Shown one piece after another: positions 13,889-28,040 of a DNA stretch of 28,040 nt. A program made the translations under genes and the position numbers. Source of the DNA: Promethearchaeota archaeon (GTDB lineage: Archaea; Asgardarchaeota; Lokiarchaeia; Sigyniarchaeales; SOKP01); NCBI GenBank assembly GCA_019058365.1, contig JAHPZE010000043.1, positions 1 to 28,040 of the forward strand, given 5' to 3'. Each line of letters starts with the position of its first letter. Position 1 is the stretch's first letter. Under the pieces are notes generated by a model. That model saw nothing but the letters and a program-made list of their open reading frames with translations. It made no database searches and was not told the DNA's origin.

Positions 13889-14461
13889 ATGAATGAAAAA
13901 TTAAAAATAAGATTTTCTGGTAGAGGAGGTCAAGGCATCAAATTTTTAGGAAGTGTATTAGTCCGAGTTGCTATGGCTGCTAATTATTATGCGACACTCA
14001 CAGTAGACTATACACCTTCCGTTAGAGGAGGTCCTATTTTTTGTGATGTGATTCTAAACACTGCTCCTATTTCATATCCATTCTGCGATAAAGATGCTGA
14101 TATTTTTATAGCCATAGATCAAAATGGATTTGAGCGCGCTTCTGAATGTATATATGAAAAAACTCACTCCTTTATCGATGAGCATACAATTGCTAACCCC
14201 GAAGAAATAATCCAAAAAGGTATAATCCATCGCGTCCCAATTACAAGACGTGCGGATGAAAAAAAAATGCCCAAGAGCGCAAATATTGTTTGTTTAGGAT
14301 TCCTTTCTGAATATCTTAAAGAGAGTGGAAAAATTGATTTAAAAGAAGAATATTATGATCAAGTTTTAAATAATATGCCAAAACAGTTTAGAGCCATTAA
14401 TATTCAGAGTTATCAGCTTGGTCAAGCTCTCTATCAGGAATTAATAAATAAATTCCAATAA
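13889..14461 (+). CDS. 2-oxoacid:ferredoxin oxidoreductase gamma subunit (KorC-like)
   Basis: IRFSGRGGQG, YTPSVRGG and SANIVCLG motifs. Confidence 0.9.
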   Translation: MNEKLKIRFSGRGGQGIKFLGSVLVRVAMAANYYATLTVDYTPSVRGGPIFCDVILNTAPISYPFCDKDADIFIAIDQNGFERASECIYEKTHSFIDEHTIANPEEIIQKGIIHRVPITRRADEKKMPKSANIVCLGFLSEYLKESGKIDLKEEYYDQVLNNMPKQFRAINIQSYQLGQALYQELINKFQ

Positions 14462-14524
14462 ATCCTATTTCTTTAATAGAACCTTGTAAGATTTGACTTT
14501 TAAATTCTTACCAACGTAGTTTCA

Positions 14525-14558
14525 TATGAAGAAATCATTATTTAATGAGTTTCTTATA
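14525..14558. promoter_or_regulatory. Imperfect inverted repeat in the gamma-delta intergenic region
   Basis: TAT-G-AAGAAA-TCATTA [TT] TAATGA-G-TTTCTT-ATA; possible operator or RNA hairpin upstream of the delta-alpha-beta-hdrA unit. Confidence 0.35.
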
Positions 14559-14651
14559 CTGTGAAAAAGCAAATTTAAAAGAGACTCTATTATTTTAAAG
14601 CATAAGAGAAAAAAAATAGTCAGTGTATATATACAAAAAGATGATCAAAAA

Positions 14652-14939
14652 ATGTTAAAGTCTAAACGAACACCCATTTTACCACCTCCTACCCCCGAGA
14701 AAAAGTATGAGATATTTATAAATTCTGAACAATGTGATGGTTGTGAATTATGTTTATCGTTTTGTCCAAAAGATATAATAGAAATAAGTGAAGATAACTT
14801 CAATAGTCGCATGCTCCACTATGCAATTGTGGTTAAACCTGAAGAATGTGCAGGGTGCAGACAATGTGAACGGTTATGTCCTACAGTTTCATTATATATT
14901 TTGGAAACAGATATTAAGGAGGTTAATAATAGTGAGTAA
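14652..14939 (+). CDS. 2-oxoacid:ferredoxin oxidoreductase delta subunit (2x[4Fe-4S] ferredoxin, KorD-like)
   Basis: CDGCELCLSFCP and CAGCRQCERLCP; overlaps the alpha-subunit start. Confidence 0.9.
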   Translation: MLKSKRTPILPPPTPEKKYEIFINSEQCDGCELCLSFCPKDIIEISEDNFNSRMLHYAIVVKPEECAGCRQCERLCPTVSLYILETDIKEVNNSE

Positions 14940-16077
14940 GGTAAAGTTCCAAGAAAAAAGAATACTAACTACTGGAAATTATGCATGTGCAGAAGGTGCG
15001 ATTACAGCAGGATGTTTATATTTTGCGGGTTATCCTATCACACCATCCTCAGAAATTGCGGCTTACATGTCAAGACGACTTCCTCAAGTTAATGGGACAT
15101 TTGTTCAAATGGAAGATGAGCTGGCTTCAATCACAAGCTGTTTTGGAGCTTCTTATGCTGGAAAGAAAGCGATGACTGCAACTTCAGGACCAGGTTTTTC
15201 ACTTATGGCTGAAAGTATAGGTTTGGGCGTGATGTTAGAAGTACCAACAGTTATTGTCACAATAATGAGAGGAGGTCCTAGTACAGGACAACCTACAAAT
15301 GCATCTCAATCTGATGTATATCAAACGAGATATGCTTCTCATGGAGACTATGAAATAATCGTATTAGCCCCATCTACAGTTCAAGAAATGTACGATTTGA
15401 CCATACATGCATTTAATTTATCTGAAAAATATCGTATACCTGTAATTGTCGCTTCAGATGGAATTTTAGGACAAATGATGGAGGTTGTTAATATACATTC
15501 AAATATTCAATTAATAGAGCGTAAAAAACCTCAAGTTCCACCTGATAAATATAAACCTTTTGAAGCTTTTGATGATGATCTTGTGCCTGGAATGGCAATA
15601 GCAGGAACTGAATATTCTTTTTATGTTACAGGTTTAACTCATGATATAGAGGGAAATCCAGAAATGACACCAGAAGCGGCAGAAGTTCTCATTAAACGGC
15701 TTTGTGATAAAATTAGGAAAGCAAGACCTCAAATTAATGATTGGGAGGAAAAATATTTAGACGATGCTGATATCGTTATTTTAGCTTATGGAATTAATGC
15801 AAGAGGGGTGCCAGAAGTCGTTGAGCAAGCACGCCAAAAAGGATATAAGGTGGGACTTGTACGATTAAAAACTCTATGGCCCTTTCCTGATGAATTAATG
15901 GAAAGAATAGGACAAATGGGGGTTTCAAAGGTTATCGTCTGTGAAATGAACAATGGGATGGTAATTAGAGAAGTTCAGAGATTTCGGCATTTGTTTAATG
16001 TTTCTGGTATTACAATTCCTACCACCATACCTTTTAGTCCTAAATTTATTTATGAGAAGTTTATGAAGGAGGTTTAA
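14932..16077 (+). CDS. 2-oxoacid:ferredoxin oxidoreductase alpha subunit (KorA-like)
   Basis: GNYACAEGA, AGYPITPSSEI, QMEDE, TATSGPGFSLM and RGGPSTG. Real start is probably GTG 14932 after SD AGGAGGT (14917-14923), not 14788. Confidence 0.93.
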   Translation: MSKVKFQEKRILTTGNYACAEGAITAGCLYFAGYPITPSSEIAAYMSRRLPQVNGTFVQMEDELASITSCFGASYAGKKAMTATSGPGFSLMAESIGLGVMLEVPTVIVTIMRGGPSTGQPTNASQSDVYQTRYASHGDYEIIVLAPSTVQEMYDLTIHAFNLSEKYRIPVIVASDGILGQMMEVVNIHSNIQLIERKKPQVPPDKYKPFEAFDDDLVPGMAIAGTEYSFYVTGLTHDIEGNPEMTPEAAEVLIKRLCDKIRKARPQINDWEEKYLDDADIVILAYGINARGVPEVVEQARQKGYKVGLVRLKTLWPFPDELMERIGQMGVSKVIVCEMNNGMVIREVQRFRHLFNVSGITIPTTIPFSPKFIYEKFMKEV

Positions 16078-16080
16078 GAT

Positions 16081-16965
16081 ATGAGTCCATCAGATCAAAT
16101 CTCAATCCCCCCTGAAGCGCTGGGTCATCCCTTAATAGATATGTTAAATTTACACCGATTTATTTTTTGTCCGGGTTGTTTAATTGGGACTGTAATTACA
16201 TCAATTACAAGCTGCCTAAAAGAAAGAGGACTCACATCTAAAGATTATGCCATTGTATCTGGCATAGGATGTACTGGTCGATCTAGTGGCTGTTTTAAAG
16301 CACCTGCCTTCCATACTACACATGGGAGAGCTATACCCTTTGCAACGGGTATAAAATTAGCAAATCCTAAATTAAAAGTTATAGTTCTATCGGGAGATGG
16401 AGATCTTTTTGCTATTGGTGGGAATCATTTTATCCATGCTGCAAGAAGAAATATAGAACTAACGGTGCTCTGTATTAATAACAATATATATGGGATGACT
16501 GGAGGTCAAGTAGCCCCTACAAGTCAGATTGGTGACATCACTTCAACAACCCCATATGGAAATGTAGAACCTCCCTTCAATTTGGTAAGCCTAGCAGCTG
16601 CGTCAGGAGCAACATATGTCGCTAGATGGCCTGCATATGACACACTTAGATTACAAAAAAGTATTTTTAAATGCATAGACAATCAAGGATTCAGTTTTAT
16701 AGAAGTACTTGCTCCTTGTTTTATCCAATATGGGTCTAAAAATAAATTAGGCGATGCTGTAGAGATGCTAGATTGGTTAAAAAAGCAAATTAGGATTAAG
16801 CTTGATTGGCCCCCTCATCAGGCAACTTTTGATTTTAAGAAAGGGATTATTATTTGCGGAGAATTTGTGGAAGAGGAGCGAGAAGGATTTAGCAAAAAAA
16901 TAGAACAAGTTCGAAATAATGCACAAAATAAGAAAATAGTAAGAGAAATTAAAGATAGTGCCTAA
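16081..16965 (+). CDS. 2-oxoacid:ferredoxin oxidoreductase beta subunit (KorB-like, ThDP-binding)
   Basis: FCPGC, SGIGCTGR, HGRA, GDGDLFAIGGNH and NNNIYGMTGGQ; SD AGGAGGT upstream. Confidence 0.93.
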   Translation: MSPSDQISIPPEALGHPLIDMLNLHRFIFCPGCLIGTVITSITSCLKERGLTSKDYAIVSGIGCTGRSSGCFKAPAFHTTHGRAIPFATGIKLANPKLKVIVLSGDGDLFAIGGNHFIHAARRNIELTVLCINNNIYGMTGGQVAPTSQIGDITSTTPYGNVEPPFNLVSLAAASGATYVARWPAYDTLRLQKSIFKCIDNQGFSFIEVLAPCFIQYGSKNKLGDAVEMLDWLKKQIRIKLDWPPHQATFDFKKGIIICGEFVEEEREGFSKKIEQVRNNAQNKKIVREIKDSA

Positions 16966-16969
16966 ATAT

Positions 16970-19321
16970 ATGACTGAAAGTGATAATAAACCTGATATTG
17001 AACCTAATATAGGAGTTTTCCTATGTAAATGTGGAAAAAATATTGGTGGAACTGTTGATATTGATCAATTAGCTAAAGATATTGAAGAAGATACAAGAGT
17101 CAAACTAGTTCAAGTTAATACCTATACTTGTTCTGATCCCGGGCAAGTAGAAATCGAAGCAGCAATTAAAGAGCAAGGTATAGAGAAGATAGTTATAGCA
17201 GCATGTTCCCCGAGATTGCATGGACCAACATGGAAAAAGCTTTTAAGACGAGTTGGAATAAATCCTTCGCTAGTAGAAGTTGCTAATATCCGGGAACAAT
17301 GTAGTTGGGTACATCTTTCAGAGAAAGAAGAAGCGACTAAAAAAGCTAAAGAAATCCTTGAAATGGCAATCGCTAAAGCTGAGTTATTAGAAGCAATTGA
17401 TGATATCGTTGTTCCCATTACACGAAGAGTATTAATTATTGGAGGAGGAGTAGCAGGAATTCAGGCTGCATTAGATTTAGCTGATGAATTTGAAGTTATT
17501 CTTGTAGAAAAATCACCTACTATTGGAGGAAAGATGGCTCTCATCGATAAGACTTTTCCAACAATGGATTGTTCAATTTGTATTTTAGGTCCCAAAATGG
17601 CTGATGTAGGTAATCATGAAAATATTAATTTAATTTCCTGTGCTGAAGTAACCAATATATCTGGATATATTGGTAATTTTGAGGTAACAATTAAAAAACA
17701 TCCTCGCTATGTGGATGAAAACCTCTGTACTGCATGTGGGGATTGTGTTTCAATCTGCCCTGAAAACGTTATTGATGAGTATTCTGGCAATTTAGGTTGG
17801 AGGAAAGCAATATATATCCCATATCCACAAGCCGTACCAGCCTGTTACATAATTGATGAAAAGAGCTGTTTAGGTCTCTCTCCTTTAGCCTGTGGAAAAT
17901 GTGTTCCTGAATGCGAAAAAGAAGCTATAATTTATGAGGATTCCGAAAGAACTTTTAATTATAAAGTTGGAGCCATTATAATAGCAGTGGGATTTGAACT
18001 TTTTGATGCTTCTAAGCTCCCAGAATATGGATGGGGTAATTATTCCAATGTAATAACAACTTTTGAGTTTGAAAGGTTAATTAACGCGGCAGGACCAACA
18101 AATGGAGAACTCGTACGTCCCAGTGATCTTAAGAAACCAAAAAACGTTGCTTTCATTAATTGTGTAGGATCGCGTGATAAGCGATTTAATCCATACTGTT
18201 CTAACTTCTGTTGTATGGAAAGTATAAAGGATAGCCTTTTGATTAAAGAACATTGGCCTGATGTTGAGGTTACAATATTCTTTATTGATATTAGGGCTTT
18301 TGGTAAAGGGTTTGAAGAATTATATTCACGTTCAAGAGAAGAAGGGGTTCTTTTTATACGTGGACGCCCTGGTCAAATTAAAGAAAATCCCATAACTAAA
18401 AATCTAAAAGTTAGTGTTGAAGATATAAGCACTGGAACAATTCTCTCTGAAGAATTTGATTTAATAGTCCTTTCTATAGGAGTTGAAGGTTCATCAGAAT
18501 CTATTCCTTTTCCTATTGCTAAGGATTCAAGTGGATTTTATATTGAAGCACATCCTAAACTTCGACCAGTAGATACTCCAACTGATGGTATTTTCATTGC
18601 TGGTGGAGCAGAGTCACCAAAGGATATTAGAGAAACTGTTACACAAGCTAGTGCTGCAGCAGGACGTTGTGGAAATTTGCTTTCAGAAGAAGAATTCCAT
18701 GTAGAGCCTTTATATGCTTTCGTAGACATAGAAAAATGTACTAGTTGTGGAACTTGTGTATCTCGTTGTCCTTATGGTGCTATAAGTGTTGATCGAGAGA
18801 AAAAAACTCCAGCACGAATTATTCCAATATTATGTAAAGGTTGTGGTACATGTGCAGCAGATTGTCCTACAGATGCTATTACCATGACTAATTTTACGGA
18901 TGCTATGATCCTTAGACAAATTGATATTGCTCTTCGTGAAAAAGCTTCGGAAAAAGTAATGATTTTTGCTTGTAATTGGTGTTCATATGCGGGAGCCGAT
19001 TTAGCTGGAACAAGTCGTATCCAGTATCCAACTAATACAAGAATTGTTAGAACTATGTGTTCAGGACGAGTAAAAGTATCTTTTATTAAACATTGTTTTA
19101 ACCGTGGAGCTGGAGCTGTTATGTTGACCGGATGCCACCCCCAAGATTGTCATTATATTTCTGGAAATGATTTTGCCATAAAGCGAGAAAAAAGAATTAG
19201 AAGTTGGATGAAGAAAAATAATATTTCTGATGAGAGATTTGTCATTGAATGGATCTCTGCAGCAGAAGGAAAAAGATTTGCTGAAATAGTTTCACAAGTA
19301 AGTAAAATAGCTTTAAAGTAG
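16970..19321 (+). CDS. hdrA: Heterodisulfide reductase subunit A (HdrA)-like flavoprotein fused to a C-terminal MvhD [2Fe-2S] domain
   Basis: GVFLCKCG, NIREQCSWVH, FAD motif IIGGGVAG, DKTFPTMDCSICIL, inserted and C-terminal ferredoxins, CVGSRD...CSNFCC; MvhD motifs FACNWCSYAGAD, CSGRV and GCHPQDCHY. Start is ATG 16970 or GTG 16958. Confidence 0.92.
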   Translation: MTESDNKPDIEPNIGVFLCKCGKNIGGTVDIDQLAKDIEEDTRVKLVQVNTYTCSDPGQVEIEAAIKEQGIEKIVIAACSPRLHGPTWKKLLRRVGINPSLVEVANIREQCSWVHLSEKEEATKKAKEILEMAIAKAELLEAIDDIVVPITRRVLIIGGGVAGIQAALDLADEFEVILVEKSPTIGGKMALIDKTFPTMDCSICILGPKMADVGNHENINLISCAEVTNISGYIGNFEVTIKKHPRYVDENLCTACGDCVSICPENVIDEYSGNLGWRKAIYIPYPQAVPACYIIDEKSCLGLSPLACGKCVPECEKEAIIYEDSERTFNYKVGAIIIAVGFELFDASKLPEYGWGNYSNVITTFEFERLINAAGPTNGELVRPSDLKKPKNVAFINCVGSRDKRFNPYCSNFCCMESIKDSLLIKEHWPDVEVTIFFIDIRAFGKGFEELYSRSREEGVLFIRGRPGQIKENPITKNLKVSVEDISTGTILSEEFDLIVLSIGVEGSSESIPFPIAKDSSGFYIEAHPKLRPVDTPTDGIFIAGGAESPKDIRETVTQASAAAGRCGNLLSEEEFHVEPLYAFVDIEKCTSCGTCVSRCPYGAISVDREKKTPARIIPILCKGCGTCAADCPTDAITMTNFTDAMILRQIDIALREKASEKVMIFACNWCSYAGADLAGTSRIQYPTNTRIVRTMCSGRVKVSFIKHCFNRGAGAVMLTGCHPQDCHYISGNDFAIKREKRIRSWMKKNNISDERFVIEWISAAEGKRFAEIVSQVSKIALK

Positions 19322-19328
19322 ATATATA

Positions 19329-19351
19329 TTTGTTGGTTGTAAATCAACAAA
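19329..19351 (+). other. Short hairpin immediately 3' of the hdrA-mvhD stop (possible transcript-end or stabilising element)
   Basis: TTTGTTGGTT-GTA-AATCAACAAA: 10-bp stem with one G-U pair on the + strand. Confidence 0.4.
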
Positions 19352-19385
19352 ACTGAAATAATATAAGAGGGATAATTTAGAAAAT

Positions 19386-19886
19386 ATGCCTGATCTTCAG
19401 AAAGAAAGAAAAAAACGCTCAGAAAAGATGATAAGCTTATTTAATTCTTTCAAAAACCAAGAATTAAAAAACTTACCTGTTCCTCCTTTTTCAAAATGGG
19501 CTAATGGGAAAATAATAAAAGCGGAGTTTGGTTTAATGGAATTAGAATTTGAAGTAAGACCTGAAATGGCAAATCCAACAAACTTACTACACGGTGGGAT
19601 ACAATGTGCACTAATGGATGATGTGATAGGGATTACAACAGCCACACTAGGTTATAAAGGTTTTCCAATTAGTATAGATTTCCATGTAGATTATTTAGGA
19701 AAAATTCAAGTTGGTGAAAAAGTAAGAGTAATTGGAGAAATTATACGGGAAGGAAGAAATATTATCCATGCAAATGCAGAAATTCGAGATTTGAATAATA
19801 ATTTGATCTCAACCAGTAATTCAAATCTATTAAAAACTAAGTTTATACCAGAATATGTAAAAACAGCGGATAGGTTAGAAAGGTAA
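19386..19886 (+). CDS. PaaI family (hotdog-fold) acyl-CoA thioesterase
   Basis: MANPTNLLHGGIQCALMDD hotdog motif; SIDFHVDYL; REGRNII. Confidence 0.9.
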   Translation: MPDLQKERKKRSEKMISLFNSFKNQELKNLPVPPFSKWANGKIIKAEFGLMELEFEVRPEMANPTNLLHGGIQCALMDDVIGITTATLGYKGFPISIDFHVDYLGKIQVGEKVRVIGEIIREGRNIIHANAEIRDLNNNLISTSNSNLLKTKFIPEYVKTADRLER

Positions 19887-21320
19887 TCATGAATGTCCCA
19901 TTCTTCTTTTATATTCTGAAATTTTTGTCAGTAGTGGGATAAATTCAAGAGGATCTCCAGAAACTGGAACTTTCCTTTCAATTAACTTTTTTGAAATACT
20001 TTCTCTTTCTTCTGGGTTATTCAAACGTTGAATTATGGGAATTAAGGGTTTATTATGTTTATGACCCAATATAAGGCTTTCTATCATATTAGATTCAAAA
20101 TCTTGATTATCCCTTGATTTAAGAACAGGAGTTAAATAAAAACTAGGCATATCTAAAATTAAACCATCTATCTTTTTGTCTGATAAAGCAAGATCAATAA
20201 TTTCATATACAGAAATTACATAGAAAAATTGTGCTGCTAAATCTAAAGGATTATTTGAACTTGTACCTGGCAAAAAAAATTTGGACTTGAGTTTATCTTG
20301 GATTTCAGAACTAAATGGAGGTATTTTCATTCCTGCTTTCTCAAGTAGATCTACTAAAATCACTCCATAGCCTCCACTAATACTAAAAACTGCCAAATTA
20401 TTTAGTTCAAAAATTCCATAAAAGTCAATTAAACGAGCAGTGTGGAGTAATTGCTCCAAAGAATCAACATCAATAATGTTAAATTGTCTAAAAAGAGCAT
20501 GCCAAAGTCGATTATCTCCTGAAATTGAAGCAGTATGTGTCTTAGCTGCAATAGAGCCGGTCTCTGATTGACCTCCTTTTAATATTACAATTGGCTTTTT
20601 GTTTTGTTCAAGGACTTTCTTCAAATCATCAATTCTTCCTTCTTTAATACCCTCGAGGTAACATAAAATAATGTCTGTTTCTGGATCATTACTTAAAAAG
20701 TAAAGTAAATCAACAAAATCTATATCTGCTCCATTTCCAAATGAAAATACTTTAGAAAAATTAATACCTAATGCTTCTGCTCCATATATTGCAATATTAC
20801 AGATCCCACCTGACTGTGCAATAAAGCCTATATTTCCGGGTGTTGTTGGAAATCCTGGACGCCAAGCTATACCTAACTTAGGATAATAGATTCCCAATCC
20901 ATTTGGTCCTAGGATCCTTACTTTATTTTGTGCTCGCTTTAATAATTCCTTCTCTAAAGCAATACCTTCTTCTGTACCAGAATCAGAAAATTCAGATGTA
21001 AAAACAGTAACTAATTTTACGTTTTTTTTTACACAAGAATCAATTGTCCTTAAAATCTGGGATGGTGGAACTGCAATAAATGCAAAATCGACTTCTCCAT
21101 GAATGTCTTCTAATGATGGAAAAATATTTTTCTTGTCAAAATTAGGAATTTCTTCAGCAGTAGGATGAACCGCATAAGTAGGACCTTTAAAATATTCTGC
21201 ATGATTTTTCAAAAAGAAGTATTCTCGCTTTTTGGAAGGACCAATAACAGCAATAGATTTAATATCATTTATGAACGAAACATCCTTGACATTTAAGTAG
21301 GTAGTATCTTCCTCTGTCAT
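19887..21320 (-). CDS. ADP-forming acyl-CoA synthetase alpha subunit (AcdA-like CoA-binding protein, no ATP-grasp domain)
   Basis: SIAVIGPS CoA-binding fold, ILGPNGLG, AQSGG, SFGNGAD, YLEG, AKTHTAS phospho-His, SISGG and NNPLDL. Its stop abuts the convergent thioesterase stop with no spacer. Confidence 0.88.
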   Translation of the reverse strand: MTEEDTTYLNVKDVSFINDIKSIAVIGPSKKREYFFLKNHAEYFKGPTYAVHPTAEEIPNFDKKNIFPSLEDIHGEVDFAFIAVPPSQILRTIDSCVKKNVKLVTVFTSEFSDSGTEEGIALEKELLKRAQNKVRILGPNGLGIYYPKLGIAWRPGFPTTPGNIGFIAQSGGICNIAIYGAEALGINFSKVFSFGNGADIDFVDLLYFLSNDPETDIILCYLEGIKEGRIDDLKKVLEQNKKPIVILKGGQSETGSIAAKTHTASISGDNRLWHALFRQFNIIDVDSLEQLLHTARLIDFYGIFELNNLAVFSISGGYGVILVDLLEKAGMKIPPFSSEIQDKLKSKFFLPGTSSNNPLDLAAQFFYVISVYEIIDLALSDKKIDGLILDMPSFYLTPVLKSRDNQDFESNMIESLILGHKHNKPLIPIIQRLNNPEERESISKKLIERKVPVSGDPLEFIPLLTKISEYKRRMGHS

Positions 21321-21547
21321 TACTTCTTAAAATTATTTATAGCATTAAATTTTTGAGATTTAATATTTTTACTAACGCATTTTTTCTATTAGATAATATA
21401 TCGCAGTAAATATTTAGCAATTTTAGTTATTTTAACAAGCCTATAAATTTTAGTAAGAAGTAAATTATTTTGAAATAAATAAATATAGATTTTAGATCTT
21501 CATGAGGATTTGATCTATTATAGTTCTTCTATTCATTTAAAGAAATA

Positions 21548-21667
21548 TTTACAATAATGTAAACTTACTAAATCCATCTACAGATTTGTCTATACAATAA
21601 TGTAAATTCCCCAAATTCATATACATATTTGTTAATTTATTCTTTCTTTAATTTACATTAATGTAAA
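21548..21667. promoter_or_regulatory. Array of three 16-bp palindromes TWTACA-WTAA-TGTAAA (candidate transcription-factor operators)
   Basis: TTTACAATAATGTAAA 21548-21563; TATACAATAATGTAAA 21591-21606; TTTACATTAATGTAAA 21652-21667 (perfect palindrome). The first two lie in an imperfect 43-bp tandem duplication. Confidence 0.75.
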
Positions 21668-21715
21668 ATACACTACTATAAATAATCTCTTATAGATTTT
21701 TCAATTTTGTCAAAT

Positions 21716-21737
21716 GAAAAAAAAAAATTTATATATA
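21716..21737 (+). promoter_or_regulatory. Archaeal BRE/TATA promoter of the metalloprotease gene
   Basis: Purine run followed by TTTATATA at 21728-21735; the same position is occupied by TTTATAAA in copy 2. Confidence 0.65.
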
Positions 21738-21761
21738 ACTCGGCATAATAAAAAATCACTG

Positions 21762-21886
21762 AAAATGTCTAGAATTTCGTAGAGCTTAAACCACTTGCAG
21801 AAATTTTAGGACTTTTTGGCTATGTTTGTAATATGTTCAAATGAGACAACATTTTGAATATTCGAACAACAAAAATGGAAAAGTAA
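21762..21886 (+). ncRNA. Candidate structured cis-regulatory 5' leader RNA, copy 1 (hairpins P1 21762-21816 and P2 21824-21867)
   Basis: Both hairpins are conserved in copy 2 with one fully compensatory and three G-U-consistent substitutions; the loops diverge most. Confidence 0.7.
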
Positions 21887-21926
21887 TTTCCAACAAATTT
21901 AAAAAAAAAAATAAGATGATATAAAA

Positions 21927-24221
21927 ATGAGAAAAAAACTAGTTACAATTTTAATGGTCTTCACCTTTTTAAGTATTGCTAGCTTTTCAACAATGTTAAA
22001 TGTAACCGGTAATGTTCAGAGTGAAACATCATCCTTTGATATAGAACCACTTTATGATTGCCAGTCTGCTGATACTTTATCACTTGAGGATGCAGTATTT
22101 GAACCTCCACATAGTCCATGGCTTTATCCCACCATTAACGATTATACTGGTTCCGTACAATGGCTCTATTTTGAAAATATCTTTAATGGTACCTATGGGA
22201 ATATTTGGGTCGCATTGGATCCAGCATATGATTGGTATGTTGATAATGGTGAGCCTGGTTATAGTCCTGATGATGTATGGTTTTTTAGTTATCCATGGAC
22301 TTCTACTGGCTACCCTGATTCGAGTTATCCAGATGGCTATTATTTACCACCGGGTTATGTTGATTATATAACAGGAGCAGATCTATTAGAAGTTTTAGAA
22401 GAATTCGATAATAATATCCATGATACAGATGTGGGATATTTTGGTCAATATAATGATCGACCAGGCCCTTATGATGATTATAAGGTCCAAGTAATGGTAT
22501 TCAACATCAAGGATGATTTTTTCTACGATCCTGCTAACGCTCAAGGTTTTATCGAAGGATATTTCTGGTCACAAATAGCTGATTATTTCTCTACTAACGC
22601 ATTCCATATGGATACTTATCAATGGTGGAGGAGACAAGGTGGAAATCCACCAATGGAGGATCCTTATAATAACTTTGATTACTCATATCTCAGTATACGT
22701 GCTTGGGAATATGAAGGAACCTTTGCCCATGAATTTCAGCACCTTATTCATCATGACAGAGATTCTGATGAACTTTCCTGGGTTGACGAAGGCTGCGCAA
22801 CTTTAGCTGAATGGCTTTGTGGATATGGATTCTCTCCCGGACATATTTCGGAGTATTTACTCTGGTTCTGGGATACTCCATTAACGATATGGGAAGGGTA
22901 TTTAGCTGATTATGGCGCATCCTTTCTGTGGACATACTATATGTATGAACATTACGGTGGAGCAGAATTATTAACCTATCTAGTTGAGGATCAAGCGAAC
23001 GGAATTGCAGGATGGGAAAATGCACTTGCAGCAATGCATATACATAGATCATTTGATCAAATCTTCCAAGACTGGTGTATCGCAAACTATCTTGATGATA
23101 CATCATTTGGAAGAGGAAGATATGGTTATTATGAATTAGATATTCCTTCGGAAAACTCAGATGGTATGAGTATACAGCTTGCAATGGAATTGTGGGACAG
23201 TTGGTATGCAGGTCTTGGCTATTTCGATTGGTATGTGAATGAATATCCATATGACGGTGAATATATTTTAGCTGGTCGTGGATTACCTTATACTGCGAAT
23301 TATGTAGAATTTACCAATGTTCCATCATTATTTGAAGTAGAATTCGACGGTGCTGAAACATGTGGGGCTGCACCAACTAGTGGGACACATAATTGGTATT
23401 CTGATGGGGAAGCTTGGTCATGGTGGACACTTAGTCAAACATTTGATGTACCTGCTACAGGAGCATGGCTTTATTTCTCTAACTACTTTTCAATCGAAGA
23501 AGATTGGGATTATGGTTATGTAGAGGTTTATGACCATGATACTGGATTGTGGACAACACTACCAGGGCTTTACACGACAGATTATCTTGGTTATGCACAA
23601 GACAATCCATACACTCCTACTGAAAGAGAGCCATATATGTATAATTATACAGGAACATGGAACTGCTTCACAGGAGACAGTGGTGGTTTATACACAGAAG
23701 CAATGGATCTTACACCCTTCGCAGGGCATACAATAGAATTGTCCTTTACTTATTGGACTGATGCATATACACTTGGTTCAGGATGGTATATTGATGATAT
23801 AGAAATACCTGAAATTGGATTCTCTGATGATTGTGAAACGCTTGGTGACTGGACTGTTAGTCCAGAAGGTTATGGATGGTATTTAAACGATGAGATAATT
23901 TACAATCATTTTGCAGTAAGTTTAATCCAATCGACAACCTATTTCAAGAAGGATGGTACAGCATATAAAACTTGTTATCATATAGATGGAATGAGAATCA
24001 ATGATGATACTGAAACAGGAAATGAGTTCATGTTAGTTAAAAATATTAGGCGTACTGAGAGTACTGTTGTAATGGTGGTTGCTAATCAACCAGGATATGA
24101 ACATACATTCGGAACCACTTATAGTTTCCATGCAGATTGGAAGCATTGGCATCATCATTGGTATTGCCAATGGCATCATCATTGGATTCATGATTGGCAT
24201 CATTGTTGGCACCATCATTAA
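21927..24221 (+). CDS. Secreted zinc metalloprotease (HEXXH...E gluzincin-type domain + immune-inhibitor-A-like beta domain) with Trp/His-rich C-terminal tail
   Basis: Signal peptide MRKKLVTILMVFTFLSIASF; TFAHEFQHLIH with downstream WVDEG; EEDWDYGYVEV and GWYIDDI motifs of InhA-like C-domains; tail WKHWHHHWYCQWHHHWIHDWHHCWHHH. Confidence 0.87.
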   Translation: MRKKLVTILMVFTFLSIASFSTMLNVTGNVQSETSSFDIEPLYDCQSADTLSLEDAVFEPPHSPWLYPTINDYTGSVQWLYFENIFNGTYGNIWVALDPAYDWYVDNGEPGYSPDDVWFFSYPWTSTGYPDSSYPDGYYLPPGYVDYITGADLLEVLEEFDNNIHDTDVGYFGQYNDRPGPYDDYKVQVMVFNIKDDFFYDPANAQGFIEGYFWSQIADYFSTNAFHMDTYQWWRRQGGNPPMEDPYNNFDYSYLSIRAWEYEGTFAHEFQHLIHHDRDSDELSWVDEGCATLAEWLCGYGFSPGHISEYLLWFWDTPLTIWEGYLADYGASFLWTYYMYEHYGGAELLTYLVEDQANGIAGWENALAAMHIHRSFDQIFQDWCIANYLDDTSFGRGRYGYYELDIPSENSDGMSIQLAMELWDSWYAGLGYFDWYVNEYPYDGEYILAGRGLPYTANYVEFTNVPSLFEVEFDGAETCGAAPTSGTHNWYSDGEAWSWWTLSQTFDVPATGAWLYFSNYFSIEEDWDYGYVEVYDHDTGLWTTLPGLYTTDYLGYAQDNPYTPTEREPYMYNYTGTWNCFTGDSGGLYTEAMDLTPFAGHTIELSFTYWTDAYTLGSGWYIDDIEIPEIGFSDDCETLGDWTVSPEGYGWYLNDEIIYNHFAVSLIQSTTYFKKDGTAYKTCYHIDGMRINDDTETGNEFMLVKNIRRTESTVVMVVANQPGYEHTFGTTYSFHADWKHWHHHWYCQWHHHWIHDWHHCWHHH
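24138..24218 (+). repeat. Degenerate 12-nt repeat (TGGCATCATCAT) encoding the period-4 W-x-x-x His-rich tail
   Basis: 27 aa containing 13 His, 7 Trp and 2 Cys; Trp every fourth residue. Confidence 0.9.
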
Positions 24222-24260
24222 GACTAAATAGTAAAAATAGATACTTAATCAAAACTTAAA

Positions 24261-24271
24261 TTTTTTTTTTT
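24261..24271 (+). terminator. Oligo-T archaeal terminator after the metalloprotease gene
   Basis: T11 run 40 bp downstream of the stop; flanks resemble those at 27962-27972. Confidence 0.6.
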
Positions 24272-24410
24272 ATTCTATAATTTTCTAAAATTGTTTGTAT
24301 ACTAATCTTCCCTTAGATATGTCATTTGGGTGAACTGGAATTGATGCAAATTCTTGGCTCACAGTTGATTATCAAGGAAATGGAAATTTTATAATAATCA
24401 AAGCACATTA

Positions 24411-24986
24411 GTGATCAGAATAATAAAAAACTGGAAAAATTATTTAAATTTTGATCCTCTGCTAAAATTTCAATCTTCTGGAAAGAAGGCAATTAGATAT
24501 TATACTAATCGAGATCTTTTAGGTGATAAAATGAGATCAATTAAAAGTTTATGGGTACTTCCAAAAGCAGAATAAATACTCAAAAAACAACAAAAAAAGG
24601 GCTCATGGAAATATCTTAGAAGGAAAACATATTTGAGATCTCAATAAAATTATGATCAATTAGAAACATATAGGCAATTAGGGTTCCTTATTGAAAAATA
24701 TGAGTTCAATAATAAACATCAAACCATCCAAAAAGCAGCTAAATTCTTATTTTCATATCAAACTGAAGAAGGTGATTTTAGAGGGATTTATGAGAATCAA
24801 TATTCCCCGAATTATTCTGCTGGAATAATGGAATTGCTGATTAAAGCAGGATATGATAAAGATCATTATATATAATAAGGATTTAAATGGCTATTATCAG
24901 TGAAGCAAGATGATGGTGGATGGATTATGCCGATAAGAACAAATAATGCGAAATTTTTGATGATAAAAAAAAAAGAGATGATATAA
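24411..24986 (+). pseudogene. Truncated pseudogene of a prenyltransferase/squalene-cyclase (QW) repeat protein
   Basis: One frame from GTG 24411 reads ...QQKKGSW...FLFSYQTEEGDF...GFKWLLSVKQDDGGW... with in-frame TAA at 24573, 24645, 24873 and 24876. Missed by the ORF track. Confidence 0.8.
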
Positions 24987-25040
24987 AAATTGTAAATGTT
25001 ACAATTTTAATAGTAATAATCTTCATATTTTTAAATGTTC
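24965..25040 (+). repeat. Relic third copy of the protease translation-start/signal-peptide region
   Basis: A10-GAGATGATATAAAAAT...GTTACAATTTTAATAGTAATAATCTTCATATTTTTAAATGT resembles copy 1 (AGATGATATAAAAAT; GTTACAATTTTAAT) and copy 2 (ATTTTAATACTAGTAGTCTTCACACTTTTAAATGT). Confidence 0.6.
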
Positions 25041-25257
25041 TTATGCTGAGTTTATTTATTATATTAACATTATGACATGTTAGAATATTTAAATTTCGCA
25101 TTCTAATCTTATACAATCTTAAAAGTGTAACAAAGAGGATAATAACTCAAAAATGGCAATATTGGTTGATATCCTCAGATAATTTGGAAAGTTTATTAAA
25201 AAATTTTAAAAATTTATCTGATTTCTGTTTCAAGAATAATTTTCAATTTTGTAAAAA

Positions 25258-25275
25258 GAAAAAAAGATTTATAAA
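25258..25275 (+). promoter_or_regulatory. Archaeal BRE/TATA promoter of the subtilase gene
   Basis: GAAAAAAAGA followed by TTTATAAA at 25268-25275, 199 bp before the ATG exactly as in copy 1. Confidence 0.65.
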
Positions 25276-25301
25276 TTTGTCAACATAATAAATTCTCAAC
25301 A

Positions 25302-25432
25302 AAATTGTCTAAAATTTCAGTGGGTGAAAACCATTTGGAGAAATTTAATGACTTTTTGGTTTTGTTCGTAATATCTTGAAAAACTATAAGATTATGGATA
25401 TTTGAACTGTAAAAATGGAAAAGAATAGTTAA
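25302..25432 (+). ncRNA. Candidate structured cis-regulatory 5' leader RNA, copy 2 (P1 25302-25356, P2 25364-25407)
   Basis: Same pairing register as copy 1, with structure-preserving substitutions. Confidence 0.7.
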
Positions 25433-25466
25433 TAATTTACTAAAAAAAAAATAAGATGAGAAAAAA

Positions 25467-27938
25467 ATGAGAAAAAAACAAATTATTTTAATACTAGTAG
25501 TCTTCACACTTTTAAATGTAGTTAGTTTTCCTTTCGTTTTCGCAGAACCACAGAAAATTTCTTCTGACTTAGAAGATGAGCTATCAAGACTTGATGCAGG
25601 TTCTATTGATGCAGGTTCTATTAACGTCCTTATTGAAACATATGATTATGATTATACCTCAATTGTATCATATATTGAGTTTTTTGGAGGTGTAGTAACA
25701 AACGAATTTAAATATGCATCTGGTTTAGCTGCAGAAATTCCTATTAACGCAATTGAAAATTTGAAAGATCTTTCTAATGTTAAAAAGATATCTAAAGATG
25801 AAATTCGCCAGTTTAGTTCCTCTACACCTATATTCGGTAATGAAGAATTGGATGACTATATTTTTAGTGAAACAGAGCTTTCAATGGATGGAAGAGAAGT
25901 AATTAGCCTATCCACATCTGAAATAACAAAGATATTTGATAGTGTGCCTGAGACATACTGGAATTACCTTTCTATGAATGCTTGGTCTGTTTGGGAATCT
26001 GGTTATATGGGACAAGATTCTTTGGCTGTTATTATCGACACTGGAGTGTATGATCAACATATCATGATACAACACGCGGTTATAGGTGGTATAGATCTAA
26101 GTCCTGACTCAGAAACTCCAGGAAATCCAGATTGGAATAGTCCTCTTAATCATTGGCATGGAACTCATTGTGCCGGTATTCTAGCTGGTGATGTTGCGCT
26201 TATAGTGCCAGAAAGTGATATATTATATCAATCCTATGAATTATATACTGGTATATCCATACCCGCATCTGTTGTCGACCCTGGATATTCAGAAAATTAT
26301 TATGTCATCCCTTTATTAGGCATGGCACCAGAGGCACAGATCTTTGGCATAAAAGTATTTCCTTCTAGTGGTGCAGGTGTTCCCACATCGTATATTATTA
26401 ATGCTATTGAATATGCCATAGGGATGCATGAATCTGGTGATTATGATGTGGATGTTATAAGTATGAGTTTAGGAGGTGGAACTGGGTATGATGGACGAGA
26501 TCTCGAAGCTCAAACTGTAGACTATGCAACTTCAATAGGTATTACTGTTGTTACCTCTGCTGGTAATGATGGTCCTGCTTCATTGACGGTTGGTAGTCCA
26601 GGGTGTGCTAATACAGCCATTGCTGTTGGAGCCGTCGCTGATCCTGTCAATACAAGAATCTATTGGGACGTAATGTATGATTGGTATGGTCTTGGATATT
26701 ATCTCTTTACTAGTGAAACTCCACAAGTTATTTACTTTAGTAGTCGTGGAACAACATCAGATGGACGACTAAAACCAGAATTATGTGCAACAGGAGTATA
26801 TGTGTTATCATCATATATAGATCCTTTAGATCCAAGTCCTTACGGTTTCGCTTGGGCTTCTGGTACCTCAATGGCCTGTCCAGCAGTTGCGGGAGCAGTA
26901 GCACTTCTTAACAGTTGGGGTGAATGGGAAGGTGCTTCTCCTTATGATTATAAACAAGCTTTAATGGATGGAGCAATATGGATGGAAGGTTATGATGAAA
27001 ATGACCAAGGAGCAGGTAATTTAAATGCATACCAATCTTGGCTTTCATTAATTAATGATGATTCTCTAGGAGATGATCACCCAGGACTTAGAAAATGTTA
27101 TAGAAGAAGCCCTGTTCGACCAAATGGTATTAATACACACATTTCTGAGAAAGGTCGCTTCACATATTATTTAAAAGAAATGGAACCAGGACATCCACTT
27201 GAATTTTACTTGCTTGTTACTGAAAAAACGAAAAGTATAACAATAATTCTCTCGCATATAGACTTAGGTGATGATCCATTATTGATGAATAGTTTTGAAC
27301 TCTCTGTTCAGAGTGCTGTAAGAACGGGCTATGATTATCATGTTGAGAGCTTTAATATAAATGGTACTACTACAGTTGAGATTGAAGATTATAGTGTTAC
27401 ATGGACAGAAGATAATATATGGGGAACCGATTATTACCAAGAAACACCACTCCAACCTGGATATTATAAAGTTTGTGTGGAGAATGATTGGACTAGTTAT
27501 GATGTCCTTTCAGGCAAATTGGAGATTATCGTAGAAAAAGATATGCCTTGCTGGGATCATCATCATTGCTGGGGTCATCATCATTGCTGCTGTCATTGCC
27601 ATTGGAAATATATTAATTTTCCAGATGAAACTTATAAAGGTACAATTACAACTGACGAGGCAATAGGATGGATTCCTATCGGAGCTGGTGATGATGGTGT
27701 TATAGTAGAGCTATGGTGGAAGAATGATTGGACTAGATATCCAACTAGTGATTTAGATATGGTGGTTGCATGGTTTGATACAGATGACAACTTACATTAT
27801 GAATATGCTGCTGGTGGTTCTCTTAGATCACCTGAAGGGGTATATTTACCTGATGCAGTTGCGGCATACATCCTAATTTTTGGATATGAGACTTATGGAG
27901 TCAAAGAACATTGGAAATTGTATGTTTGGTATCAATAA
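25467..27938 (+). CDS. Secreted S8 subtilisin-like serine protease (signal peptide, I9-like propeptide, catalytic domain, C-terminal beta domains with a His/Cys/Trp-rich insert)
   Basis: Triad IIDTG / HGTHCAG / GTSMACP, oxyanion SAGNDG, FSSRG; insert CWDHHHCWGHHHCCCHCHW; no C-terminal transmembrane anchor. Confidence 0.93.
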   Translation: MRKKQIILILVVFTLLNVVSFPFVFAEPQKISSDLEDELSRLDAGSIDAGSINVLIETYDYDYTSIVSYIEFFGGVVTNEFKYASGLAAEIPINAIENLKDLSNVKKISKDEIRQFSSSTPIFGNEELDDYIFSETELSMDGREVISLSTSEITKIFDSVPETYWNYLSMNAWSVWESGYMGQDSLAVIIDTGVYDQHIMIQHAVIGGIDLSPDSETPGNPDWNSPLNHWHGTHCAGILAGDVALIVPESDILYQSYELYTGISIPASVVDPGYSENYYVIPLLGMAPEAQIFGIKVFPSSGAGVPTSYIINAIEYAIGMHESGDYDVDVISMSLGGGTGYDGRDLEAQTVDYATSIGITVVTSAGNDGPASLTVGSPGCANTAIAVGAVADPVNTRIYWDVMYDWYGLGYYLFTSETPQVIYFSSRGTTSDGRLKPELCATGVYVLSSYIDPLDPSPYGFAWASGTSMACPAVAGAVALLNSWGEWEGASPYDYKQALMDGAIWMEGYDENDQGAGNLNAYQSWLSLINDDSLGDDHPGLRKCYRRSPVRPNGINTHISEKGRFTYYLKEMEPGHPLEFYLLVTEKTKSITIILSHIDLGDDPLLMNSFELSVQSAVRTGYDYHVESFNINGTTTVEIEDYSVTWTEDNIWGTDYYQETPLQPGYYKVCVENDWTSYDVLSGKLEIIVEKDMPCWDHHHCWGHHHCCCHCHWKYINFPDETYKGTITTDEAIGWIPIGAGDDGVIVELWWKNDWTRYPTSDLDMVVAWFDTDDNLHYEYAAGGSLRSPEGVYLPDAVAAYILIFGYETYGVKEHWKLYVWYQ
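25591..25620 (+). repeat. Perfect in-frame 15-bp tandem duplication in the subtilase propeptide
   Basis: TTGATGCAGGTTCTA x2, giving LDAGSIDAGSI. Confidence 0.9.
27549..27605 (+). repeat. 18-nt repeat (TGCTGGGRTCATCATCAT x2) and Cys/His run encoding the internal metal-binding-like tract
   Basis: 19 aa containing 8 His, 6 Cys and 3 Trp. Confidence 0.9.
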
Positions 27939-27972
27939 GGTAATATAATTACCATCTAAAATTTTTTTTTTT
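27939..27972 (+). terminator. Hairpin + oligo-T terminator after the subtilase gene
   Basis: GGTAAT-ATA-ATTACC (27939-27953) followed by T11 (27962-27972). Confidence 0.7.
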
Positions 27973-28040
27973 ACTTATTATTTTGTGAATATGATCCCTA
28001 AAAACTAGTAAATTATTTAAGATTTAGGATTGAGAACGAC

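Follow-up and report, generated by a model that had tools for sequence, protein, structure and literature searches.

A candidate locus-bound expression module with a structured leader in front of unrelated secreted proteases in a Lokiarchaeia genus

The closest described counterparts of the element reported here are presumably the 5′ untranslated regions (UTRs) that stabilise mRNAs of secreted proteins, such as the aprE leader of Bacillus subtilis and the 5′ UTR of Escherichia coli ompA. Our subject is a conserved leader with two hairpins, P1 and P2, that precedes two secreted protease genes in a 28,040-nt stretch of Asgard archaeal DNA (a Promethearchaeota archaeon of the class Lokiarchaeia; contig JAHPZE010000043.1). 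A structured 5′ UTR with a strong Shine-Dalgarno (SD) sequence is also outlined for hbs (PMC5737220). As far as the accounts of aprE, ompA and hbs go, their leaders resemble the Asgard one in being long and cis-acting, in having a stem-loop close to the 5′ terminus and a good ribosome-binding site after it, and in preceding highly expressed, often secreted proteins. The Asgard leader differs in its host, which has different RNases, in its two conserved hairpins with sequence-conserved junctions and in being common to non-homologous genes at one locus.

Conserved structured 5′ UTRs with alternative pairings of a U-tract are likewise found among riboswitches and attenuators and, as in an attenuator, the P1 hairpin and the U-run behind it could terminate archaeal transcription. 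Unlike the riboswitches collected in Rfam, the leader forms no evident ligand-pocket-like multi-stem junction and does not visibly sequester its SD sequence. No Rfam 15 family matched it; the sole match at E ≤ 1 in 21000-28040 was a chance one to CRISPR-DR38 (24467-24504, E 0.55). Our literature searches returned no paper on cis-regulatory RNAs or 5′ UTRs of Asgard archaea.

We consider it probable (roughly 0.6) that the leader is part of a locus-bound expression module, not of a dispersed regulon, and that the front end is kept while the protease cargo behind it is duplicated, lost or swapped. The window, by which we mean the whole stretch analysed, is the entire contig C19 of the genome under study (G000, 4.74 Mb; G-numbers denote species genomes, L-numbers genomic or metagenomic loci and C-numbers contigs). 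Two plus-strand open reading frames (ORFs) of 764 and 823 aa are arranged head to tail in it, the first (unit 1) encoding a metalloprotease with HEFQH and MAM signatures and the second (unit 2) a Peptidase_S8 subtilase (Table 1). Their front ends (21698-21990 and 25240-25529) are 74% identical over ~290 nt (BLAST E 3.7e-45; also recovered by alignment and as repeat families D1, D2 and D8), and each TATA box (21728 and 25268) begins exactly 199 nt before its own ATG. The similarity extends through the start codon and about 21-26 codons of the signal peptide (MRKKLVTILMVFTFLSIASF in unit 1, MRKKQIILILVVFTLLNVVSF in unit 2) and then ends. Between the two genes lies a relic front end, which at 24965-25039 is 68-72% identical to both. 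The mature proteins have isoelectric points of 4.1 (metalloprotease) and 4.2 (S8) and contain 21% and 13% Phe, Trp and Tyr, and the only hydrophobic stretch of at least 18 residues in either protease is the signal peptide. The original prediction had described just such an architecture, with homologous front ends of identical TATA-to-ATG spacing, homologous signal peptides after which similarity stops, similar T11 terminators and a relic third front end, on two unrelated proteases with acidic, aromatic-rich, anchorless mature regions and W/HHH tracts, and all of these elements were recovered here.

Conservation of the leader was gauged by determining how far 22 cargo genes are identical to that of unit 1 in their protein sequence, at their fourfold sites and in the 232 nt that precede them. 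Nine genes encoded proteins 31-40% identical to that of unit 1; their fourfold identity was 0.31-0.43 (chance 0.36) and their leaders were 62-79% identical (chance 0.33). Judged by this comparison, the leader is conserved far beyond neutral decay. In genomes with a single unit (G005, G031, G009, G006, G062 and G036) the leader was still 73-96% identical, and conversion between tandem copies therefore cannot explain the conservation.

The distribution of the leader pointed to a single chromosomal site. BLAST found only two copies plus the relic in G000, and R1, a covariance model built from 27 copies, found the same two leaders, the next-best match having an E of 0.6. Across the genus (54 species genomes), 17 species bear the leader by BLAST (E ≤ 1e-10) and 18 by R1 (E ≤ 0.001), the 18th, G063, depending on a single weak R1 match. 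Strong copies number 1-3 per genome, and the hot spot holds up to 4 gene units. An exact-pattern scan of 185,579 species in the GTDB, one genome each, confined true copies to one Promethearchaeota genus, its bacterial matches being due to chance, and a metagenome scan with the leader pattern added 7 loci. ORF maps of about 25 loci showed identical synteny at all leader loci: 2-oxoacid:ferredoxin oxidoreductase (OFOR) alpha and beta, HdrA-MvhD, with or without a thioesterase, a divergent acyl-CoA-synthetase-like gene and then the protease unit or units. In Pfam searches the 3′ side consisted of an optional squalene-cyclase-like gene followed by an IF-2B-like gene, an M28 peptidase and a second OFOR. 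Since the synteny is the same in every case, the leader is bound to a single hot spot and does not define a regulon. The proposed regulon of exoenzymes thus gave way to two copies in G000 and one syntenic locus in all 18 genomes of one genus; the suggested BLAST and covariance-model search of the front end did yield more copies across species, but only two within G000. An integron or mobile cassette was considered and rejected, as locus and orientation are fixed in all genomes with the same conserved neighbours; no recombinase was found among the neighbouring genes put to Pfam, which were part of the ORFs at these loci.

The neighbours form a peptide-fermentation island that is kept across the genus (13889-21320 in the window; also L059 and L062). 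By Pfam it comprises two OFOR sets, an HdrA-MvhD fusion, a 4HBT thioesterase, an ADP-forming acyl-CoA-synthetase-like gene, the IF-2B-like gene and the M28 peptidase. Protein breakdown is a lifestyle proposed, and partly shown, for Lokiarchaeota (PMC9123169).

Behind the 30 strong leaders with complete genes we found 27 HExxH metalloproteases and 3 S8 proteases. The metalloproteases make up deep subfamilies, 27-91% identical to the window protein, and 23 of the 24 put to Pfam contain PF20773. The original prediction had spoken of secreted hydrolases in general; among the downstream genes tabulated, proteases were the only hydrolases found as cargo. Reuse of one regulatory and export module on non-homologous cargo, as originally proposed, was borne out by the InhA-like subfamilies, a small S8 family and a large S8. 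As separate observations, the leaders at L051 (G003:C23, 10287-10573) and L083 (3328-3559) are complete, carry a dead start codon (ATC) and are followed by no cargo, the next conserved gene lying directly 3′ of them; they are natural 'empty' units.

The two S8 families behind leaders share only 27% identity. The large one was found among leader-bearing loci only in G000, and the small one (434-496 aa) in G008, in metagenome locus L105 and, behind a weak leader, in G076. The unit 2 protein scores 144.9 bits with PF00082 (cut-off 21.8), and its catalytic D191, H231 and S468 and oxyanion N367, in DTG, HGTH, NxGP and GTSMA motifs, are invariant in a 24-sequence alignment. The protein is of a ~800-aa family whose members in Asgard archaea, Bathyarchaeia and Chloroflexi align with it over the full length at 44-67% identity (alignment A5). 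It shares the four motif residues with these subtilases; unlike them, it has a CWxHHH linker repeat, is the only member in its genus and lies behind a metalloprotease leader. The genus yielded no orthologue in its other 53 species, and only one of the 161 genomes surveyed in the class, G086, has one, also 3′ of an InhA-like gene. The closest metagenomic orthologues (59-65% identity, BLASTP) already have an MRKKQII signal peptide, so that the S8 fusion is older than this species. The metagenome scan, which was aimed at the leader pattern, returned no large-S8 locus.

In the leader tree, the S8 leader of G000 grouped with the leader of a G007 metalloprotease gene (G007_M6c) and the cargo-less G003 leader, not with unit 1. 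Relic, ~200-nt spacer and leader are collinear in G000 and G007, with homology ceasing near codon 21-26; the G000 relic is 85% identical to that of G007 and 73% to that of G003. The grouping and the collinearity together indicate that orthologous front ends drive different cargo in two species, a metalloprotease in G007 and a subtilase in G000. At G076 (L076, C34 8049-9567), the small S8 is the sole protease, there is no InhA-like gene and the leader is diverged (nhmmer E 0.007); this looks like full replacement of the usual cargo.

The surroundings of unit 2 bear on how it arrived. Upstream of the relic lies a squalene-cyclase-like pseudogene, whose intact homologue matches Pfam SQHop_cyclase_C and normally sits 3′ of the protease array. 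An intact G000 copy lies at the very end of contig C3 (47719-48801) and is 77.7% identical in DNA to the pseudogene, a divergence that resembles the one between species. With one copy decayed in the window and the other at the end of C3, contigs C19 and C3 are probably adjacent, and the window end most likely joins C3. The segment of pseudogene, relic and S8 is, on these comparisons, probably an insertion from a related lineage.

The usual cargo is represented by the unit 1 metalloprotease, whose HEFQH motif occupies aa 268-272, with H268, E269 and H272 invariant in 37 sequences. Its InhA-like MAM domain matched PF20773 (E 3e-17, 63.2 bits against a cut-off of 26.9), which was the sole Pfam report at E ≤ 0.01; the catalytic model Peptidase_M6 did not match. 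A profile of the protein matched lugdulysin (7bb8, M30; E 5.9e-16) and the MAM part of InhA2 (4yu5), and a single-sequence search of the PDB found nothing. An AlphaFold2 model (mean predicted local distance difference test score, pLDDT, 85.4) retrieved 7bb8/7bb9 and 4yu5 with Foldseek at a probability of 1.0 (E about 1e-12 for lugdulysin). Because the catalytic domain is closer by fold to M30 lugdulysin, we call the enzyme InhA-like and not M6. Like InhA (MEROPS M6) and lugdulysin, it is a secreted enzyme, with an HEXXH domain (as in 7bb8) and a MAM domain (as in 4yu5); unlike them, it is one of a subfamily of archaeal enzymes that carry an additional beta domain in the C-terminal part and a Trp/Cys tail that is cationic or His-rich.

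Every leader copy, folded singly, formed P1 and P2. P1 consists of GUCUAGAAUUUC...GAAAUUUUAnGAC with a small apical stem, and P2 of GUUCGUAAUAUC...GAUAUUUGAAC, topped by a stem of variable sequence that stays paired. In a MAFFT alignment of leaders, 87.1% of cells at stem positions were paired, against 37-49% with a slid partner. A model-fitted alignment of 40 copies gave 87.1% against 40-53% and showed changes on both sides in 19 pairs, against 9.0 ± 1.9 in shuffles (0 of 500 reached 19), although this alignment is biased towards the structure used to build R1. Paired cells contained 145 G·U or U·G and 24 A·C or C·A combinations, where base composition predicts parity; this excess fits a sense-strand RNA, and neither a DNA palindrome nor an antisense RNA. 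The TATA box at -199 would place the transcription start ~170 nt 5′ of the ATG, and a GAGATGAT block 6-8 nt before the ATG can pair at 7 of 8 positions with the 3′ end of G000 16S rRNA (GGAUCACCUCCU). The U4-5 tract 3′ of P1 can pair alternatively with a 5′ CUGAAAA or a 3′ GCAAAAA, which would suit an attenuator. Two simpler devices were rejected: an upstream ORF, whose ATGGAAAAG start is missing from many copies (for example in G008, G009, G006 and G017), and sequestration of the SD sequence by P2, for which inspection found no conserved complementarity. The leader is thus best described as a putative cis-regulatory structured 5′ UTR with sense-strand covariation, for which support is real but modest.

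Besides the alignment bias just mentioned, several points count against a functional leader module with exchanged cargo. Single-sequence fold energies are unremarkable (z -2.24 for unit 1 and -1.25 for unit 2). Most stem positions are conserved in sequence, which is why the covariation is modest. That the leader is transcribed at all is predicted from the position of the TATA box. In two thirds of the genus, the InhA-like gene at this locus lacks the P1/P2 leader, so that the leader is dispensable. G086, the sole genome-resolved source of a large-S8 orthologue, shows no detectable leader, and the S8 fusion is old, its direction not being proven.

Against these points stand the difficulties of the other accounts. 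Plain local duplication followed by neutral decay, with front ends that are functionless leftovers, would agree with two adjacent units, a relic between them and only two copies in the genome. We regard it as extremely improbable, given leaders that stay 62-80% identical although identity at fourfold sites, at 0.31-0.45, is at the chance level of 0.36, copies conserved in 18 species and 7 metagenome contigs, and an S8 leader nearer to leaders of other species than to that of its neighbour. The outcome that the original prediction had set against itself, namely two lone copies, no co-occurrence of leader and His-rich tag elsewhere and divergence by decay after one duplication, was not what we found: copies occur across species, leaders and tails rich in Trp, His and Cys (W/H/C) co-occur elsewhere, and by the leader tree the S8 leader is no recent copy of its neighbour. 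Gene conversion, which is favoured by tandem arrays, could keep the 5′ regions of units alike without functional selection, and some leaders do cluster by genome or array (G034 a and b; G007 a and b with G029 b). Such concerted evolution seems quite unlikely: the leader is kept where there is only one unit, conservation between species is not explained by conversion, and neither compensatory changes nor a G·U bias are expected from conversion alone.

Control at the DNA level deserves somewhat more weight, and we still hold it to be unlikely. P1 and P2 would then be inverted-repeat operators downstream of the TATA box, with the RNA fold incidental. Repressor binding immediately 3′ of the TATA box is common in archaea, the stem arms are largely conserved in sequence and further operator-like boxes lie upstream. 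Operators of this kind do not account for a six-to-one excess of G·U over A·C at paired positions despite predicted parity, for arms at least 20 nt apart, for an apical P2 stem that varies in sequence with pairing kept, or for conservation that spans ~170 nt and reaches the ribosome-binding site.

Under the locus-bound module that we prefer, a peptide-fermentation island in part of one Lokiarchaeia genus would hold a hot spot of 1-4 secreted protease genes. Each unit would consist of an upstream box, a TATA box, a ~170-nt 5′ UTR with P1 and P2, an A-run, the SD-like GAGATGAT and a Sec signal peptide. Purifying selection would retain this front end as the cargo changes, while units duplicate in tandem and decay to relics, and recombination near the end of the signal-peptide region would replace the coding body. 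In this way, a leader whose cargo is otherwise an InhA-like metalloprotease would have come to precede S8 subtilases of at least two unrelated families. As an RNA in the sense transcript, the leader would act in cis, most likely as a 5′-proximal element for stabilisation or translation control or as an attenuator, the latter because P1 precedes a conserved U4-5 tract that can pair instead with A-runs on either side. In both roles, the leader would make the protease behind it, of whatever family, respond to one shared signal.

Both window proteases also carry a W/H/C tract, terminal in the metalloprotease and internal in the S8. In a six-frame scan of the genome these were the two strongest, with 13 (metalloprotease) and 14 (S8) W/H/C residues in a 15-residue window, the next best having 8. 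Metalloproteases of the subfamily end in ...NQPGYEHTFGTxYxFxA followed by a short tail in which W, C, H, R and K abound (SWNWRCRW, HPRHWRHHWWC, KWKWRRRCWW), and by its 12-nt repeats the (WHHH)n tail of the window protein is an expansion of this cationic tail; the AlphaFold2 model has it disordered (pLDDT <50, aa 743-764). In the S8, the tract is an insertion of ~14 aa, and the closest orthologues lack it, reading DRPFWSNG--KKAPKPDE. Tails at the locus are 5-27 aa long, rich in W, H, C, R and K and hypervariable in length, and 22 of 30 complete leader-bearing genes have at least 3 W/H/C in their last 12 residues. As part of the leader module, the His/Trp tag did not hold up: G019, G026 and G028 have tails at the locus without a P1/P2 leader, the S8 of G076 and L105 and several class III metalloproteases have leaders without tails, and the closest S8 orthologues lack the tract.

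The original explanation of the tracts was a shared signal for targeting or assembly, under joint selection with the leader. It draws on their uniqueness in the genome, on the 22 of 30 W/H/C-rich ends and on G008, where the small S8 behind a leader, of a different family, ends in WHWHHHHHGPHCRC beside a metalloprotease ending in NWHHFWHHH, while the G076 and L105 orthologues have no tail. We find it doubtful. Only two S8 cases have tracts and the rows counted are kin; one window tract is terminal with a 12-nt repeat unit and the other internal with an 18-nt unit, and their compositions differ; tails and leaders occur without each other; and there is neither a sorting enzyme nor a signal of transmembrane helix plus basic residues. 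That the S8 tract was transferred from the metalloprotease was rejected for G000, where the two share no word longer than 11 nt (p 0.43) and have different repeat units; in G008, a shared word of 12 nt (p 0.004) is a mere hint of such transfer. As judged from their repeats, the two tracts arose separately by codon-repeat slippage. That two unrelated S8 proteases gained tracts beside His-tailed neighbours is striking, on two cases. The tracts would be separate, disordered extensions, born by slippage, of a short cationic Trp/Cys tail, with the S8 proteases having gained theirs independently, and may be fast-evolving products under common selection; most likely they hold very acidic enzymes at the surface or bind metal. 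A side observation in the S8 propeptide (25591-25622) is a perfect 15-nt tandem duplication (TTGATGCAGGTTCTA, 2.1 copies) that encodes DAGSIDAGSI; its absence from orthologues is a further sign of recent slippage in this gene.

Known sequences offer partial parallels to the tails. Trp/Arg-rich peptides such as indolicidin, tritrpticin and the Trp domain of puroindoline are membrane-active, and His-rich tails bind metal. The short disordered tails resemble the former in composition, and the (WHHH)n form resembles His tracts that bind metal or switch with pH. Unlike indolicidin-type peptides, the tails are covalent ends of large acidic enzymes and frequently contain Cys, and the likeness is one of composition. 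Archaeosortase, exosortase and rhombosortase signals (PGF-CTERM, PEP-CTERM and GlyGly-CTERM) are likewise C-terminal tags on secreted proteins of one lineage; they consist of a motif, a transmembrane helix and a basic cluster, whereas the protease tails are hypervariable in length and have no hydrophobic helix. With no hydrophobic stretch of at least 18 residues besides the signal peptide, neither window protease shows a sortase-type sorting signal.

The remaining features of the window are collected in Table 1. The region of the unit 1 upstream box and TATA box is a putative promoter, conserved in A3, a 25-copy alignment of leaders. The T11 runs behind both stop codons would act as terminators; oligo-T termination is established in archaea, and just 179 runs of at least 11 T or A occur in the genome. 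The TACAWTAATGTAAA motif 5′ of unit 1 occurs three times in the window, once elsewhere in the 4.7-Mb genome (C35:134669) and also directly 5′ of leaders in G031, G027, G015 and G007. This recurrence upstream of leaders in other genomes makes it probably the operator of a dedicated transcription factor.

Table 1. Features of the 28,040-nt window. TRF, Tandem Repeats Finder.
Feature	Position	Strand	Evidence
Three TACAWTAATGTAAA boxes, operator-like, 5′ of first unit	21548..21667	+	Repeat families D4, D7; TRF period 43
Upstream box TTTTCAATTTTGTCAAATG, A-run, TATA box TTTATATA (21728-21735), unit 1	21698..21737	+	Conserved columns in A3
Leader core, unit 1: hairpin P1 (21767-21812), hairpin P2 with U5/A5 extension	21754..21878	+	R1 129.6 bits
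A-run and SD-like AAGATGAT (21913-21920), 6 nt 5′ of ATG, unit 1	21901..21926	+	Conserved GAGATGAT block
Secreted InhA-like zinc metalloprotease, 764 aa	21927..24221	+	Signal peptide aa 1-~28, HEFQH 22728-22742, MAM aa 458-642
C-terminal Trp/His/Cys tail, 27 aa (aa 738-764), metalloprotease	24138..24218	+	TRF 12-nt repeat, 6.3 copies
T11 run, probable terminator of unit 1	24261..24271	+	Follows stop codon; putative role
Squalene-cyclase-like pseudogene, N-terminal 177 aa of 321-aa protein, 4 in-frame stops	24423..24956	+	tblastn 64% to G009 protein
Relic front end of deleted unit: A-run, SD, lost start codon, signal-peptide remnant	24965..25088	+	BLAST, repeat families
Upstream box, A-run, TATA box TTTATAAA (25268-25275), unit 2	25240..25275	+	Alignment with unit 1, A3
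Leader core, unit 2 (P1, P2)	25294..25418	+	R1 118.9 bits
A-run and SD-like AAGATGA (25453-25459), unit 2	25442..25466	+	
Secreted S8 subtilase, 823 aa, two repeated C-terminal beta domains	25467..27938	+	PF00082 E 4.2e-42
Cys/Trp/His tract, 19 aa (aa 695-713), linker between S8 C-terminal domains	27549..27605	+	TRF 18-nt repeat, 2.3-3.2 copies, 84-95% matches
T11 run, probable terminator of unit 2	27962..27972	+	Follows stop codon

The MRKK signal peptide was considered as a generic trait of the genome and rejected: a strict pattern, which did not pick up the S8 itself, was matched by only 3 of 3172 long ORFs. The peptide is characteristic of the InhA-like family, including leaderless paralogues outside the hot spot, which have an MRKK-type signal peptide but a different upstream region. 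Three such off-locus paralogues, L147 (G017:C81), L148 (G003:C6) and L149 (G008:C102), share an upstream region of their own (...GGGAATAGTTATACCTTATTTCTTTTTATGTCA...TTTATGAGGTTTGAAA), which may be a second leader family. As to names, the public records within the one GTDB genus are labelled inconsistently as Promethearchaeota, Promethearchaeia, Hermodarchaeota or 'uncultured archaeon', and one homologue carries the label Odinarchaeota.

A bolder possibility, which we put forward tentatively and think less probable than not, is that the P1/P2 leader defines a novel Asgard class of cis-regulatory RNA, acting as an attenuator or by sensing a ligand or protein, that would switch on the proteases together with the island, and that the tails, gained convergently, would provide metal- or pH-dependent retention at the surface of wall-less cells. 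As a candidate cis-regulatory RNA, the leader is compact (~125 nt) and alignable, with ~40 natural variants, and would offer a concrete handle on post-transcriptional control in Asgard archaea. The locus would be a natural example of a regulatory and export module kept during exchange of its enzymatic cargo, and the paired, genome-unique tracts on two unrelated acidic proteases hint at ways in which enzymes might be kept, or supplied with metal, on the outside of a wall-less cell.

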